NCBI RefSeq assembly: GCF_020026455.1 | Contig: NZ_JAHHQJ010000014.1 | Span: forward strand, 6,153 to 70,152 | DNA from: Alistipes sp. | Lineage (GTDB): Bacteria > Bacteroidota > Bacteroidia > Bacteroidales > Rikenellaceae | Length of the DNA: 64,000 nt | Reading direction: 5' to 3' | In this document: positions 10,115-52,800 of the stretch, piece after piece | How the letters are laid out: the number at the start of each line of letters is the position of its first letter | Position numbering within the stretch: position 1 is the first letter of the stretch | Translations under genes and position numbers: made by a program | The notes under the pieces: generated by a model | The model's input: only the letters and a program-made list of their open reading frames with translations | Database searches by the model: none | Told to the model about the DNA's origin: nothing

Positions 10115-11566
10115 ATGTCGGAAATAACCTCTTTGGAACCGCGTCTTGTCTGGGAACAGTTCGACGCCATCACGCGAGTGCCGCGTCCTTCGAAGAAGGA
10201 GGGCAAAATCATCGATTTTCTGATCGATTTCGCCAAAAAGCACCATATCGAATACAAAAGGGACGCCATCGGCAACGTCGTGATGCGCAAGCCCGCCACT
10301 CCGGGCATGGAGGAGCATCCTGCCGTGATCCTCCAGTCGCATATGGACATGGTCTGCGAAAAGAACTCGGATGTGGAGTTCGACTTCGACAACGATCCCA
10401 TCCGCACGCGTATCGACGGCGACTGGGTCCGGGCCGAAGGCACGACGCTGGGAGCCGACTGCGGTATCGGCATGGCCGCCGCACTGGCCGTGATGCTCGA
10501 CGAGACGGTGGAGCACGGCCCTGTCGAGGCGCTGTTCACCGTCGACGAGGAGACGGGCCTCACGGGAGCCTTCGAACTGGGTGAGGGGATGCTCTCGGGC
10601 AAATACCTCGTCAACCTCGATTCGGAGGACGAGGGCGAAATCTTCATCGGCTGTGCGGGCGGCATCGACACCATCGCCACGTTCCACTATACGATGGAGC
10701 CTTCGCCGAAGAACTACACGTTCTTCCGTGTCGACGTGTCGGACCTCCAGGGCGGACACTCGGGCGACGACATCGACAAGGGGAGGGTCAATTCGAACAA
10801 GACCGTGGCGCGTCTTCTGTGGGACGGCATGCAGTCGTTCGAACTCAGACTCTCTTACTTCAACGGCGGCAACCTCCGCAACGCCATTCCGCGCGAGGCC
10901 TACGCCATCTTCGGCGTCCCGACCCGCTTCAAGGAGGAGTTCGTCAAACGTTACAACCTCTTCGCCGCGGATCTCGAAGCCGAATTCCGCTTCCGCGAGC
11001 CCAATTTCAAAATCACGCTCAACGAGATGCCCCAGGTCAACGAGGTGCTCGACAGCCGGACGCAGTCGGCGCTGGTCTACTCGTTGGTAGGTGTTCCCAA
11101 TGGGGTCGTCTCCATGTCGTTCGCCGTTCCGGGACTGGTCGAGACCTCGACAAACCTTGCTTCGGTGAAGTTCGCGGAGGGCAACCGCATCGTTGTCACC
11201 TCGTCGCAACGCTCGTCGGTCGAGAGTGCCAAGACCTACGTGATGCAGATGGTCGAGTCGGTCTTCGCGCTGGCGGGCGCCGATGTGGCCCATTCCGACG
11301 GCTATCCGGGCTGGACGCCCGATCCGCAGTCGAAACTGCTGGAGGTCACCGTCGAAGCCTACAAACGGCTTTTCGGCACCGAACCCAAGGTCCGCGCCAT
11401 CCACGCCGGACTGGAGTGCGGCCTGTTCCTCGAGAAGTATCCCGATCTGGAGATGGTCTCCTTCGGCCCGACGCTCCGCGGCGTGCATTCGCCCGACGAA
11501 CGGCTCGAAATCGCCACGGTCCCCAAGTTCTGGAACCTGCTGACTGAAGTGCTGAAAACAATCTGA
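10115..11566 (+). CDS. pepD: Aminoacyl-histidine dipeptidase (M20C)
   Basis: [43 protein letters not shown]; TAACTTTG promoter element at 10090-10097. Confidence 0.95.
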
Positions 11567-11597
11567 TTCCGATTCCGGCATCCCCACGGCGGGGGTG

Positions 11598-11915
11598 CCG
11601 GAATTTGTTTCCTCTCCCGGGCCGGAGTTTGTTCCCTCTCCCGGGCCGGAATTTGTGGTCTTTCCTCTGCCTGATTTTGTTTTCTCTCCCGGGCCGCTCC
11701 CTCCCTCCTTCCCTCCCGGCCGGAGCTCCGCCTGCCGCTCGGAATTTGTTGTCTCTACGGCGGTGTCGGAACTCTTCATCATCACGAGGCTGGAATTTGT
11801 TTCCTCTCCCGGGCAGGAGTTTGTTTCCTCTTCCGGGCCGGAATCTGTTCCCTCTCCCCGGCCGCTCCCTCCTTCCCTCCCGGCCGGAGCTCCGCCTGTC
11901 CGCCCGGAGTTTGTT
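11598..11915. repeat. Degenerate 24-bp minisatellite (CCGGAATTTGTTTCCTCTCCCGGG) with higher-order duplication
   Basis: About 14 units; a block of units recurs twice. Confidence 0.85.
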
Positions 11916-12060
11916 GCCCCCCCCCATTCCCGTCGGATAGGGCCTAAGCCGAGTTGTGACGATATTTCCGGTTCCCGGATCATTTGGCCGCGCTGCATGC
12001 ACGCCGATTTTGAATTGTCGGACTTTTTGCTATCTTTGTGTTCTGTAAAGTTGCGATGAT

Positions 12061-14437
12061 ATGCTGAAAAGCCGTTGTGCCCTGTTGTTTCTCCTGCTTC
12101 CGTGTGTGGCGGCGGCCCAGTATCCCGACGACGAATACTATCCCTATGCCGAACGTGAGGAGCGGCGCGAACTGCTCACGACCGATTCGGCGATCTTCTA
12201 CCGCGCCGTGCAATCCCCTTCGGACCTTTACGGTCTTCGCTCCGATTTCAACCTGCCGCAGGTCGCCCTCCGGCGCCGCGGACTGGATTACTCCCGGGAA
12301 CGCACCTCGCTCATGGGCGTTGCGGTTTCCTACCGTTACCTTCCGGTGCTGCGCCTGCTCGGGGCCGACGAATAGCGCTATGCGGGACTTGCCGCGGTTC
12401 CCGGAGGGGGAGCCTCTGCAACCTTTCCTGGCCTCGGCAGGCTTTGCCGACCGCAATTACCTCGTGAGGGCAAAGGCCGCCGCCTCGGTGTCTCCGGGCA
12501 ATGGCTGGCTCGTCTCGGCGGCGCTCGACGCCCGCACCGGCCGCGACCGACACGTCGAAGGGGTCTTCACCAATGCCCTGACCGCCGGACTGCGCCTCGC
12601 CAAACGTTTCGGCGAGGGACACGAACTCTCCGTACTGTGTGTCGTGACACCCTCGGTGCGGGGCACGCGCCTCTCCTCTTCGGAAGAGGCCTTCAGGCTC
12701 ACGGGCGACCGCCTCTACAACCCGGCGTGGGGCTGGCAGGACGGCCGGGTGCGCAACTCCCGCGTGCGGCGCGAGACGGTTCCGCTGACCCTGGTGGCCT
12801 ATTCCGTGCCGCTGTCGGCTTCGACCTCGCTCGCCGCCACGCTTGCCGCCGAGACGGGTGTCGCGAAGTACAGCATGCTCGACTGGTACGACGCCCGCAC
12901 GCCGATGCCCGACAATTACCGCTACCTGCCGAGCCATACGGGCGACGGGGCGACCGAACAGGCTTGGCTCTCGGGCGATCCGCGCCATACGCAGATCGAC
13001 TGGGACGAACTGATCCGACAGAACCGCATGGCGGGCGGACATGCGGTCTATGCGTTGGAGGACCGCGTCGAACGGCTCTGCAACCTGGCCTTCGACGCGT
13101 CGCTGGCCACCGATCTCGACTCCCGGCTGACGCTTCGCTACGGGGTTTCGCTCCGCCGCGAAAACAACCGTTTCTACAAACAGATGCGCGACCTGCTGGG
13201 CGCCGGATATGTCGTGGACATCGACCGCTTCCTGATCGACGACGACACGTACAGCAACAGGCTCCAGAACGATCTGCGGCATCCCGGACGGAGGGTCGGC
13301 GAAAGCGACCGCTTTGGCTACGATTATGCGCTGACGCTGCGCGGGGCGGTGCTCCGCCTGCAGGCCGACTACCGCTCCGACCGTTTCCGGGCCGATCTTC
13401 CGGTCGAGCTGGGGAGCGATGCCGTCCGCCGCCGGGGCTACTATGAGAAGGAACTTTTTCCCGGCCCACGGTCCTTCGGTCCTTCGCGGACCCTGCGGTT
13501 CACGCCCTACGCGCTCAAGGCCGTTGCGGGCTGGGTCTTCTCCCCGCGGCGCTATATCGAAATCGCCGCTGCGGCCGCCGCCCGCACACCTCGGGCCGAG
13601 GATCTTTTCTTTCAGCCGCTCTATAACAACCGTGCGGTCGACAACCCCGTTCCCGAACGCCTCTACGCCGCCGAACTCAACTGCCGCCTGACGGGCCCCG
13701 TCCTCGATTTCCAGGCATCGTTCTTCGCCGTCATGACGCTCGACGGCATCGAGACACGGGCCTATTACGACGATATGGCCTCGGTCTACTGCGACATGGC
13801 CGTGACGGGCGTCGGGCGCATGTCGTGCGGCGTGGAGGCGGCCGCCGACCTCCGGCTGTCCTACCGCTGGCGGCTGTCGCTGGCGGCTTCGGCCGGGCGC
13901 TACAAATACATCCGCGATCCGCGTGTCACGGTGCTCTCCGACGTGGATAACTCGGCCGTCGACATGCAGGCCGTCAGCCGCATGGGCTGCTGTGCTATGG
14001 GCGGCTCCCCGCAGCTGACGGCTCTGGCTGAAATCTCCTGGTTCGGTCCGCAGGGGTGGGGATGCCGCGCTTCGGCCGGATATGCCGGATGGCGCCATGT
14101 CGAGCCGATGCCCCTGCGGCGCACCGACCGCCTTGCGGGTCAGGGCGGCATCACGCGGGAGTTCTTCGATGCCTTCACCCGTCAGGAGCGGCTTCCGGAC
14201 GCCTTCACGCTCGATGCCTCGCTGTTCAAGACGTTCCGCTTCGAACGTTCGCGGCTCACCGCCTCGCTTATGCTGCGCAACCTGACGGGCGAAACCGATA
14301 CGATCCATGACGGCTATGAGTCGCTGCGCGTGCGCCGCATCCGCCCGGGCGACGACGTGCTCTATGCACCCCACGCCTCGCGCTATACCTATGCGTGGCC
14401 CCGTTCGTTCTATCTCACAGTCTCTTACCGATTCTGA
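12061..14437 (+). pseudogene. TonB-dependent receptor-like outer-membrane protein, disrupted
   Basis: Signal peptide ORF 12061-12375 ends at TAG; the barrel continues in another frame from about 12400 (EGEPLQP...YNPAWG...) to a C-terminal Phe (LTVSYRF); TATCTTTG at 12031-12038. Confidence 0.75.
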
Positions 14438-46538: not shown

Positions 46539-49805
<3,267 letters not shown>

Positions 49806-50019
49806 AATACGCTGCTTGTGAGCTGCTCGAATGCAAGGCCGATTCTACCGGGGGCCATGTCGCGCAACGGATCATTCCCCGGCTTCATCCTTTGGGATCT
49901 GCTGCCTGAGCAAAGCAGCCTGCTCTACCAACCGGGGAAATAGCCGGAGGAGCCGATGATCGAACAATGCTTTCCGAAAATCGGTGCCGGACAGCTCTTT
50001 TGCACTCCTCATACCTCTA

Positions 50020-50038
50020 TTATTTAACATAATGAATA
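50020..50038 (+). repeat. Left arm of 19-bp inverted repeat (contains ATTTAACATAA)
   Basis: TTATTTAACATAATGAATA matches the reverse complement of 51587-51605 at 18/19. Confidence 0.7.
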
Positions 50039-50092
50039 TATTAATTCAATTACCTTTGTACTGTATTGATGTTGTATTGAGGCTAAAATCCT

Positions 50093-51497
50093 TTACAACT
50101 GTAACTGATCACAGTTAACTGGTCTATACGGATCTATTTTGTGGATCATCTAATCCAACAGATCATCACTCGGTATTATGAATGATCTATACAGATCGTT
50201 ACCCGCATGCACCCGCTTGTCGTCATGACCAAACTACTGGCCGCCCATCCCAAGCAAACCACGGCGTTCCGGTTCGGACGATGAAGATTTAAGCTCGACA
50301 TGCCGCTGTTTTGCCATAGGCAACGCACCGGCTTCAGACCCAACAAGCGACAATGCACCGGATTTCAACTTTTACCGCTCCCTCGGCTTTGCCTCGTGAC
50401 CTTCCTGCAATTGGAACCGGAGCACCCCGATTGAACCGAAGCATCCCGAGTCAAGGATGCTTTTCTGAAGGATGCTTTAAGTTCGCTTGTGGTGCCAGAC
50501 AAATGGATTACCGGATCTTCCCGTGCGTGCCATATTCACAAAAATATTTCGGACGATAGCTTTTAGCGCTTTGTCGGCGTGAAACTCTCGAAGGTGAGGT
50601 CGTCGTACAATATTACGATCCGCCGGATGGCGACATCTGTCCGTGTGCCGGGAAATGGAACCGTTGCCTGCGGAGTGGAATTTTCGGTCGCGGCTGCAGC
50701 CGGCTCCTGATGCGGTGGATTGATCCCTGTATTCCGCTCGGGACCGAACAGCCCTTCGGAGATCGATGCGCCGGATGCAAGGGTCGGTGCGGATTGTTCG
50801 GGCTTGCTGTCGCGATACATCTTGTCGGAGTCGAGCAGCAGCCAGTCGGGATTAATCCGCGGGAACCTCCGGAGAATCTTCTGGAGCAAATCGAATCCCG
50901 GTTTGTTTCGTCCGGCGAGAATATGGGAAATTCCCGCAGGATTGATTCCGAGCAGTTCCGCGAGCTGGCTCGGCTTCAATCCTTCGTTTTTCATCAGATC
51001 GAGCAATTTTTCCCTCATCAGCGCAATTTTTTACAAATATAAATGCTTTTCTTTTGTAAAACAAGAAAAATCTACATTTGTAAAATGTTAATAAGTGTCG
51101 ATAAAGTTTACAAGTGTAAATCAATTAATATGGTTAAATTTCTTCGATAGCTATTATATAAACTATTTATTTATATAAAATAGATTAAAATCCTTGTTTA
51201 TATGTAATTATAGTGTGTAATATCCTATGTATGCCCCTGCTGTCGACTATTACGTGTTTTGACCTCGTATTATTTAACTGATGCTTTATATGATTTATGT
51301 AAATAGCTGGTTATTAATACTTCTTTTTGATGTTATTCAATGGTTTGATCCTTGCGGGCTTGCCTCTGATCTGACATTTCCGCTCCTTGAGGTAGTTTGT
51401 TACAAGTGTAACTATTAACAGAGGCTACAAACAAATGTTTTTTACAAAAGTAATTACAGATGGAAATAAAACTCTTTTTGAGTGTTTACAAATGTAA
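50093..51497. promoter_or_regulatory. Array of TTACA-N2-TGTAA palindromes around the HTH gene
   Basis: Perfect at 50093, 51108, 51400, 51486; one mismatch at 51031, 51072, 51442, 51454. Confidence 0.75.
50563..51018 (-). CDS. XRE-family helix-turn-helix protein
   Basis: LKPSQLAELLGINPAGISHILAGRNKPGFDLLQKI..NPDWLL; low-complexity linker; C-terminal IRRIVILYDDLTFESF. Confidence 0.9.
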   Translation of the reverse strand: MREKLLDLMKNEGLKPSQLAELLGINPAGISHILAGRNKPGFDLLQKILRRFPRINPDWLLLDSDKMYRDSKPEQSAPTLASGASISEGLFGPERNTGINPPHQEPAAAATENSTPQATVPFPGTRTDVAIRRIVILYDDLTFESFTPTKR

Positions 51498-51586
51498 ATA
51501 CACTCCCCTATTTTATGCCTCCGGATGTATTTTCAAGCTATTTTCGAACCCTTTACCAGCTGTTTTGTTTACTTTTGCTGATTCCG

Positions 51587-51605
51587 TATTTATTATGTTA
51601 AATAA
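51587..51605 (+). repeat. Right arm of 19-bp inverted repeat (contains TTATGTTAAAT)
   Basis: TATTTATTATGTTAAATAA. Confidence 0.7.
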
Positions 51606-51676
51606 AAAGGCCGAATAGTGTTAATAACCCACTATCCGGCTTAAATACAGTTTGTTGTATAGTTGTGAACAGTCTT

Positions 51677-52063
51677 CTATTTCGAGAGTTTATCGGCGAT
51701 TTCGTGGAACTCTTCCGGCGTTAATTTGAGCTTTTCGCGGTGGAAATCCACGTCGTTTTCGCTCTGAATCGGGATCAGATGGATGTGTGCATGGGGTACT
51801 TCAAGGCCTAAAACGACAATTGCCACCCTTGCGCACGCTATTTCCCGTTTGATTTTGGCGGCGACCTCTTTGGCGAAAAGCATCATACCGGCCAGTGTTG
51901 TGTCGTCGAGATCGAAGATGTAATCCACCTCCTTTTTTGGGACGACCAGCGTATGGCCTTTTGTCAGTGGATTGATGTCGAGGAATGCGTAGTAGTCATC
52001 GTTTTCGGCTACTTTGTACGAGGGAATCTCCCCCGCAATGATACGTGAAAAAATGGTTGCCAT
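51677..52063 (-). CDS. HIT family nucleotide hydrolase
   Basis: TIFSRIIAGEIP, FLDINP..GHTLVVPK, VPHAHIHLIP histidine triad. Confidence 0.95.
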   Translation of the reverse strand: MATIFSRIIAGEIPSYKVAENDDYYAFLDINPLTKGHTLVVPKKEVDYIFDLDDTTLAGMMLFAKEVAAKIKREIACARVAIVVLGLEVPHAHIHLIPIQSENDVDFHREKLKLTPEEFHEIADKLSK

Positions 52064-52259
52064 ATCTTTTGTATTTAGGTTTTTCTTATCCTGCAATCCG
52101 ACGCCAGGGCCGTTTTCCTAATTTTCGCCGGCTTTTTCTGCCGCGATTCGTTTTGCGGATCGGTTTTCCGGTCCTCTGCGGCCCTGCGTTGCTGCGATCG
52201 GCTGCTGCTTCTGCTTTGGCCTGTCCGCTTCCGCAAGAAGCCCCTAAATCGCAAGCTCG

Positions 52260-52800
52260 GCCTGTACCGTGTGTTGTGCTACCGTGTCGCTGTGCGCCGT
52301 GTCGCTATGCTACCGTGCTTCCATACCTACCGTATGCCGTGCTGTCGTGCCGCCTGCGGGCCGTGTCGCTATGTTGCTGTGCTTCCTACCGCTATGCTAC
52401 CGAACTACCGTTCTATCAAGCTACCGTGCTGTCGTGCCGCCTGCCAGCATGCTACCCTGTTCGGGAGATGATGTTGCTGTATAACAGGTTGATTTACTGT
52501 CAGATACTTGCGTCTATTGCACATCCCGAGCCAGATTATTGGTATTTCAGCCAGCATTTCGCCTTGTCCGGATTCTGGGCGCCTGTCCAGCCAACCTGTC
52601 TGCCTGCTTGTTTATCGCGATCGGCCTGCCTGCTGGTGTCAGCCGACTTGCCCATCTACCAACCTGACAACCAGCTTGCTTGCCTTGTCGTCAGCCTGCC
52701 TGTTTATCGGCCTGTTTACCTGCCTGTTTGTCAGTCGGTTGCCAGTTGACCGCCCTCCATCCTATCTGTCGGCCTATCCCCCTGTCAGCCTCCTACCAAC
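52260..52800. repeat. Intergenic low-complexity degenerate repeat tract
   Basis: Recurrent CTACCGTG, GCTGTCGTGCCGCCTGC and CCTGTTT units. Confidence 0.65.

Follow-up and report, generated by a model that had tools for sequence, protein, structure and literature searches.

Two inverted repeats in a 64,000-nucleotide stretch of an Alistipes genome (Rikenellaceae, Bacteroidales) were analyzed. The whole stretch is referred to as the window, and positions are counted from its first letter. The repeats lie at 50020-50038 (TTATTTAACATAATGAATA) and 51587-51605 (TATTTATTATGTTAAATAA). They are complementary at 18 of 19 positions and have 1548 nt between their arms. Sequence and comparison with relatives suggest that the two are not equivalent. 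The left-hand repeat is probably part of the chromosomal dif site of this Alistipes (site L), a lineage-specific member of the dif family, and the right-hand repeat is probably a stand-alone XerD half-site (site R). The probability of this joint reading was put at about 0.7. The anatomy, uniqueness and conservation of the sites, their terminus-side location, the convergence of polar words and the presence of Xer and FtsK genes were established by sequence and comparison.

The initial annotation had reported the repeats and, within each, an 11-mer identical to the XerD-binding arm of Escherichia coli dif. Both observations were confirmed. The 11-mer TTATGTTAAAT is on the minus strand in the left-hand repeat and on the plus strand in the right-hand repeat (Table 1). 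The host assembly comprises 2,622,501 bp in 26 contigs with a GC content of ~59%. The exact 11-mer and the 12-mer ATTATGTTAAAT were each found in only two places in this genome, both at the pair. With up to one mismatch the 11-mer had two matches in the window compared to 0.13 expected. These counts argue against a chance match, which had been allowed for at the outset.

The comparison set consisted of 80 loci encoding homologues of the helix-turn-helix (HTH) protein whose gene lies between the two sites. Every copy of the 11-mer or 12-mer was marked in each locus. Copies located 3' of the HTH gene formed class L (36 loci) and copies located 5' of it formed class R (39 loci). Gene order was compared in 44 Rikenellaceae loci, and the AT-rich region between R and the HTH gene was aligned in 21 Alistipes genomes. 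Two complete Alistipes relatives, G011 (3.81 Mb) and G004 (3.27 Mb), were used for whole-chromosome tests. The complete 2.75-Mb chromosome of a more distant relative, G042, served as the outgroup.

Anatomy and Conservation of Site L

Conservation of the pair in relatives, on which the initial annotation had made its reading depend, was found. The pair is kept across Alistipes and the Rikenellaceae, with the right-hand copy present in 39 loci and the left-hand copy in 36. Genome-wide, G011 and G004 contain exactly two copies of the 12-mer each, both at this same locus. The conserved core consists of the 12-mer and a few spacer bases, and the remainder of the 19-bp repeat is particular to this genome. 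The XerD arms of L and R face outward in 32 of 36 genomes, and the distance between the sites ranges from 0.1 to 2.7 kb.

E. coli dif has the sequence GGTGCGCATAA-TGTATA-TTATGTTAAAT. The XerD arm of L is identical to that of E. coli at 11 of 11 positions. The class L consensus of 36 genomes was tTTGaAnTAAT-ATTnnT-ATTATGTTAAAT, so the site is conserved as a whole. With a 12-6-12 division of L, nine of 12 positions agree between the arms ATTTGAATTAAT and ATTTAACATAAT. Judged by its sequence, this layout with its arm symmetry is the anatomy of a tyrosine recombinase core site. The inner arms of both repeats had been described as resembling neither the canonical arm nor each other. The inner 11 nt of R are random, but the inner arm of L is not arbitrary, and this XerC-side arm TTGAATTAATA is kept genus-wide and is partly palindromic with the XerD arm.

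The class L weight matrix identified one site in this genome with a score of 48.9 bits, and the next best score was 21.5 bits. One site each was identified in the 400-kb terminus regions of G004 and G011, with no second candidate. Among genomes the site lies 3' of the HTH gene at a distance of tens of bp to ~1.6 kb. L has the 11-6-11 layout with partial arm symmetry, the single copy and the converging polar words of a dif-type site. Being also complete, genus-conserved and on the terminus side, it supports the suggestion of a lineage-specific dif or terminus arrangement made in the initial annotation. A search of public genomes with AATAT-N4-ATTATGTTAAAT returned matches from many phyla that were too heterogeneous to interpret, and it was discarded.

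Site R, a Probable Orphan XerD Arm

The conserved part of class R (39 loci) is only TAT-ATTATGTTAAAT-AAAAA. The inner 11 nt, which occupy the place of the XerC arm, carry no information. In the AT-rich alignment R is the first block to be conserved throughout, with thirteen invariant columns between variable flanks. Its position is nearly invariant at ~582 bp upstream of the HTH start in the 39 loci. R does not score as a complete site. On this pattern of conservation R is best described as a bare XerD arm under purifying selection.

R lies 1.5 kb from L and hence within the terminus-side region. It is retained beside the HTH gene in distant Rikenellaceae whose full dif-type site is on another contig. 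In G048 the half-site is gone from the -582 position. It is found at 100 bp from dif instead, and the XerD arms of both again point outward (G048:C2:105611/105710, locus L058). Locus L031 contains two inverted dif-like sites 75 bp apart (4866/4941). A third conserved copy of the XerD arm was seen in one clade, with similar flanks (..CTACGTAATCCAT-ATTATGTTAAAT; G045:C8:20693 and G046:C56:1549).

Location on the Chromosome

GC skew on the plus strand of G011 is negative from 1 to 1.8 Mb and positive from 1.9 to 3.8 Mb, with a sharp minimum at 1.725-1.730 Mb (1.728 Mb). The skew minimum of G004 is at ~1.10-1.16 Mb, and the skew is positive from there to ~2.7 Mb, past the locus. G011 has rRNA operons at 1.149 Mb (minus strand) and 3.051 Mb (plus strand). 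G004 has three within 1.46-2.08 Mb, all on the plus strand. All five operons are transcribed away from the skew minima and towards this locus. Because of the skew and the direction of the rRNA operons the locus was assigned to the terminus side of the chromosome. The contigs of this genome are too fragmented for their own GC skew to place the locus, and no signal of gene-strand bias was found around L in any genome examined. The skew switch is displaced from dif towards the dnaA side in G011 and G004, with weak skew in the interval between (2.455-2.73 Mb in G004, and 3.64 Mb to position 12 kb in G011).

The single copy of ATTATGTTAAAT in G042 forms the site TTCTAACACAA-TTTATA-TTATGTTAAAT at 1,047,767, with two genes converging on it. 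Cumulative skew over the 320 kb around it peaks at 1.050-1.055 Mb, 3-7 kb from this site, which is thus at the textbook dif position. In this chromosome the HTH gene is 219 kb away from the site. The dnaA gene (1.448 Mb) is separated from dif by 400 kb and from the skew minimum by ~1 Mb.

In the genome under study dnaA is located ~8 kb from the pair. A linkage of 7-10 kb is found in five genomes (this one, G011, G004, G007, and G024). No cluster of DnaA boxes was detected in the region, where two near-matches were found, and the window as a whole contained 10 compared to 6.2 expected. The skew-defined origin of G011 is an AT-rich gap between mrp-like and nadA genes at the sharp switch (1,727,880-1,728,275). 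This gap is rich in words of the TTGTCGACA/TTGTCAACA type. Its counterpart in this genome is a 90% identical block on contig C21 at ~171.2-171.7 kb. The mrp-nadA gap at the skew switch appears to be a better origin candidate than the AT-rich/HTH region. In Alistipes dnaA is remote from this skew-defined origin.

Polar Words Converging on Site L

The FtsK orienting polar sequence (KOPS) of E. coli is GGGNAGGG. A screen of G004 and G011 for polar words with L as the boundary gave GGGGTAG and AGGGTAG. A boundary-free scan with a resolution of 10-50 kb gave the same G-rich family (GGGGTAG, GGGTAGT, and AGGGGAG), with switches at -48 to +50 kb of L. These were merged into the word RGGGKAG, which resembles E. 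coli KOPS and is a candidate FtsK-orienting sequence for the Rikenellaceae.

The best interval for a switch of RGGGKAG from the plus to the minus strand was at most 3 kb long and contained L, or the G042 site, in all four genomes. In G004 the switch was at 2,453,100-2,455,230, with plus/minus counts of 38/4 to the left and 10/66 to the right (Fisher p 3e-17). The corresponding values were 11,052-13,131 with 44/11 and 2/26 for G011 (p 9e-11), and 1,046,696-1,049,515 with 30/11 and 8/32 for G042 (p 2e-6). In this genome the switch interval was 48,906-51,503 of the window, with 15/1 and 3/7 (p 1e-3). The switch is at L and not at R. The word nearest to R, at 51503, is kept as AGGGTAG in relatives. 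Contig-wide polarity in this genome was 66:16 on C1, 18:1 on C2, and 4:24 on C25. The density of the word rises towards dif.

Between L and the skew switch the plus/minus counts were 10/66 over 276 kb in G004, where the skew is +0.025, and 31/11 over 182 kb in G011, where the skew is -0.026. In both genomes the word is therefore on the locally C-rich strand, against GC skew. This argues for selection rather than mutational bias. AGGGKRG outscored RGGGKAG in the test genomes, and composition-matched permutations of RGGGKAG were also polar, but more weakly. Taken together, the convergence of RGGGKAG is strong support for reading L as dif, but not proof of it.

Ranking of 7-mers by z-score at shifted boundaries was undiscriminating, as frequent codon-like words reached similar maxima anywhere. 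For this reason the polarity fraction, the position of the switch and the conflict with local skew were relied on instead. GTTGAGG was rejected as a dif-polar word. It is strongly skewed genome-wide, has no switch at L and is inconsistent between G004 and G011. It switches near the skew switch in G004 and is irregular in G011.

Xer and FtsK Genes and Proposed Function

Elsewhere in the genome there are genes for a XerD equivalog (332.5 bits against a cut-off of 329.6), for a XerC-like recombinase whose best family is XerC (297.8 bits) and for an FtsK with a gamma domain (FtsK_gamma, 78.2 bits). The XerD gene is at C21:85718-86563 and the XerC-like gene at C22:25653-26531. Other tyrosine recombinases, one of them a third Xer-like protein, are also encoded. 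Binding by Xer proteins, recombination at L and whatever function R may have were inferred. The XerD and XerC-like recombinases of the host would bind L. FtsK, steered by RGGGKAG words converging from both chromosome arms, would activate recombination there, and this would resolve chromosome dimers at division. The most likely reading of R is that it would hold a XerD monomer without recombining. On the edge of the dif region that faces dnaA, XerD at R may be an architectural element or a roadblock. It could, for instance, be the first XerD met by FtsK arriving from that arm and act as a stop or contact point.

A number of observations weigh against L as dif and R as its half-site. Little is shared between the XerC-side arm TTGAATTAATA and the E. 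coli arm, and the score of the XerC-like protein is under the curated cut-off of 335. L is ~180 kb from the GC-skew maximum in G011 and ~280-340 kb from it in G004, which is unusual for dif. L is flipped relative to R in four of 36 genomes, and R and the full site are on separate contigs in Rikenellaceae that are more distant. Because of these two points a strict partnership of L and R is not universal. The polar word was first picked with L as the boundary in G004 and G011, so the test is partly circular in those two genomes. The word and the GC skew switch at one and the same place in G042, so that test is not independent of skew.

Proteins of the SMC family were searched for in this genome and in G011, G004, G024, and G042. 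The SMC family search (SMC_prok_B, TIGR02168) gave a best score of 24.9 bits and SMC was not detected. No SMC_hinge was found in five genomes, with imperfect sensitivity as the control missed Caulobacter. No ScpB was found in four genomes. A Bacteroides thetaiotaomicron control was likewise silent for the hinge and ScpB. Bacteroidales may be without canonical Smc-ScpAB.

Alternative Explanations

R could be a site that does not function as a Xer site. It could bind another factor, such as the adjacent XRE-type HTH protein or a terminus protein, or be a transcriptional element where the HIT terminator and the AT-rich region end. The match to the XerD arm would then have been inherited from a decayed dif duplicate. 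The fixed register of ~582 bp with the HTH gene is consistent with this, as is the position of R as the first island of an AT-rich region conserved in phase. R also remains beside the HTH gene in those distant Rikenellaceae that have the full site elsewhere, and its last arm position varies in at least eight genomes where that of L does not. This explanation is nevertheless unlikely. The conserved block is exactly the XerD arm with the spacer-proximal bases, and it is not a TTACA-N2-TGTAA box. The 12-mer is otherwise restricted to dif in each genome. In G048, where the half-site is 100 bp from dif and absent at -582, it tracks dif and not the region upstream of the HTH gene.

It is very unlikely that an integrated Xer-exploiting element (IMEX) left the pair as a scar, with R as a degenerate second dif. 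Microviruses in Bacteroidales have been proposed to integrate at dif-like sites, and additional inverted sequences of the dif type accompany some of these (PMC3091885). The stretch from the HTH gene to L does vary in length and includes 446 bp unique to this genome, and the two inverted sites of locus L031 would fit such a history. Integration, however, gives direct and not inverted repeats. The HTH gene between the sites forms, with its boxes, a core locus of Bacteroidales, which in other families lies beside queA, and the order relA-HIT-R-HTH is syntenic in 44 genomes. Purifying selection acts on the 12-mer of R, whereas the flanks are randomized. No second full site bounding the variable stretches was found, and no phage similarity.

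The initial annotation had also suggested that a tyrosine recombinase inverts the 1.55-kb module with L and R as crossover sites, as in a phase-variable switch. The arms are inverted with identical cores, and several tyrosine recombinases are encoded, among them the third Xer-like one. However, R is without a conserved second arm and so cannot hold the recombinase dimer needed for strand exchange. The spacers differ (TATTCA and TATTTA), the spacing of the sites varies from 0.1 to 2.7 kb, and the flipped order was found in none of 44 genomes. An invertible switch is highly improbable on these grounds.

The suggestion that the sites delimit the origin, with the AT-rich/HTH region as oriC, draws on the AT-rich, repeat-rich region 8 kb from dnaA and on the dnaA linkage kept in five genomes, but it is scarcely credible given that the skew minima are 1.4-1.9 Mb distant, the rRNA operons would all run head-on to replication, the polar word converges and does not diverge, only two near-DnaA boxes without a cluster are present and the mrp/nadA gap (C21 ~171 kb in this genome) is a better candidate.

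Comparison With Known Systems

L resembles the XerC/XerD-dif systems of E. coli and Bacillus subtilis in its 11-6-11 layout, its one copy per chromosome, its terminus-side location, the KOPS-like words and the accompanying Xer and FtsK genes. It differs in the divergent XerC-side arm, the skew offset of 180-340 kb in G011 and G004 and the presence of dnaA 7-10 kb away, and it is known here from sequence.

The pdif modules of Acinetobacter plasmids are gene cassettes between inverted complete XerC/XerD sites and are mobile among plasmids. The Alistipes locus likewise has two Xer-type sites inverted around a small gene module. The analogy, drawn in the initial annotation, breaks down in that only one of the two sites is complete and the HTH module is a syntenic, fixed chromosomal core locus. 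Elements of the IMEX type include CTXphi and the Bacteroidales microvirus proviruses at dif-like sites (PMC3091885). A dif site is a likely target for these and the DNA beside L is variable, but no element genes, direct repeats or second full site were found at L.

In B. subtilis, passages in two papers citing Karaboja 2021 describe XerD on stand-alone sites (XDS) as unloading SMC-ScpAB near the terminus (PMC10945525, PMC11894783). R is similar in being a conserved stand-alone XerD arm on the terminus side that presumably binds XerD without recombination. Unlike XDS, R is single, or at most double in some relatives, and it is beside dif and inverted to it. Three family searches in Alistipes detected no SMC-ScpAB. 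For that reason SMC unloading is unlikely to be the role of R. By analogy R may be a variant of the XDS idea, a linked inverted orphan arm in a lineage without detectable SMC-ScpAB, and is unlikely to share the exact role of XDS.

A wider role as a terminus module was considered and is quite unlikely. In the Rikenellaceae, apparently without SMC-ScpAB, XerD on the outward-facing R and L would stop FtsK from either arm, insulating or aiding the phase-conserved HTH/AT-rich nucleoprotein region. The dnaA gene would be kept adjacent, with initiator dosage or expression tied to termination and not to the origin.

According to a paper from 2011, chromosome dimer resolution in Bacteroidetes had yet to be studied (PMC3091885). 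The present reading would give a concrete dif site and a candidate FtsK-orienting word for Alistipes, an abundant human gut genus. The AT-rich region beside dnaA does not appear to be the origin, so the assumption that dnaA marks oriC is wrong for this group. Placement of the origin bears on growth-rate estimates from metagenome coverage and on genome start coordinates. That an orphan XerD arm is conserved in a lineage with no SMC-ScpAB detected suggests that XerD half-sites can serve purposes other than SMC unloading.

Genes and Other Features of the Locus

The features of the locus are listed in Table 1.

Table 1. Sites, polar words, genes and other features at and around the inverted pair (window positions).
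Feature	Position	Strand	Description or evidence
Further RGGGKAG words, left side	starts 41424, 43130, 46817	+	Point rightwards to L
Last two rightward RGGGKAG words before L	48901-48912 (starts 48901, 48906)	+	Word scan
Site L, 28 bp	50022-50049	-	TTGAATTAATA-TATTCA-TTATGTTAAAT, read from sequence
XerD arm of L	50022-50032	-	TTATGTTAAAT; faces outward, away from HTH gene
Spacer of L, 6 bp	50033-50038	-	TATTCA, sequence
XerC-side arm of L	50039-50049	-	TTGAATTAATA, sequence
Lineage-specific stretch, 446 bp	50070-50515		Between HTH stop and XerC-side arm of L
XRE/Cro-type HTH gene, 151 aa	50563-51018	-	Pfam HTH_3, E = 5e-9
AT-rich non-coding region, ~570 bp	51019-51586		~30-36% GC; between R and HTH start
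First RGGGKAG word on the other side of L, AGGGGAG	51503-51509	-	In AT-rich region, ~85 bp from R; points leftwards to L
Site R	51587-51603	+	XerD arm TTATGTTAAAT after spacer-like TATTTA
XerD arm of R	51593-51603	+	Faces outward, towards HIT, relA and dnaA
Hairpin of HIT intrinsic terminator	51609-51640	-	GCCGGATAGTG...CACTATTCGGCC then TTTTTATTT on the minus strand, read directly
HIT-family gene, outside R	51677-52096	-	Pfam HIT, E = 2e-20
Further RGGGKAG words, right side	starts 52028, 52452	-	Word scan
dnaA	58909-60273	-	TIGR00362, 478.6 bits, above curated cut-off

A GH2 beta-galactosidase gene lies outside L, and the HIT gene followed by relA/spoT lies outside R. The order relA-HIT-R-AT-rich region-HTH was found in the same orientation in all 44 Rikenellaceae loci, and the HIT gene was beside R in every one of them. 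Synteny is held on the R side and broken just beyond L, as expected at a terminus or dif.

Homologues of the HTH protein were found at 31-85% identity across Bacteroidales, making it a core Bacteroidales gene. Only weak, generic matches to Cro/C-type repressors were obtained against PDB. The AT-rich region aligns without large gaps in the 21 Alistipes genomes and its conserved islands are in fixed phase. The islands include several TTACA-N2-TGTAA boxes, TTTAACCATATT and AATAGGGTAG, and the direct repeat family D3 is also in the region. In other families of Bacteroidales similar boxes are present 5' of the HTH gene, and the neighboring gene there is queA.

The pair encloses a 513-bp stretch from the HTH gene to L. 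Within it the lineage-specific 446 bp are not present in G011, and nothing similar was found in the rest of this genome, at other loci or among phage records. They may have been left behind by an insertion at dif. Short GATC-rich repeats, GATCTATAC and TGTGGATCATC, were seen in this stretch around 50100-50200.

The T-tract of the HIT terminator (51604-51608, minus strand) abuts R, and a comparable hairpin follows R in most relatives. A promoter and terminator consensus scan was uninformative and did not list the HIT hairpin, probably owing to its 9-nt loop. An Rfam scan of 48-54 kb returned nothing meaningful. An open reading frame of 234 aa without a Pfam match lies between HIT and relA. It contains imperfect tandem repeats at 52285-52444 and 52590-52735, with units of 73 nt at 74% identity and of 20-33 nt.

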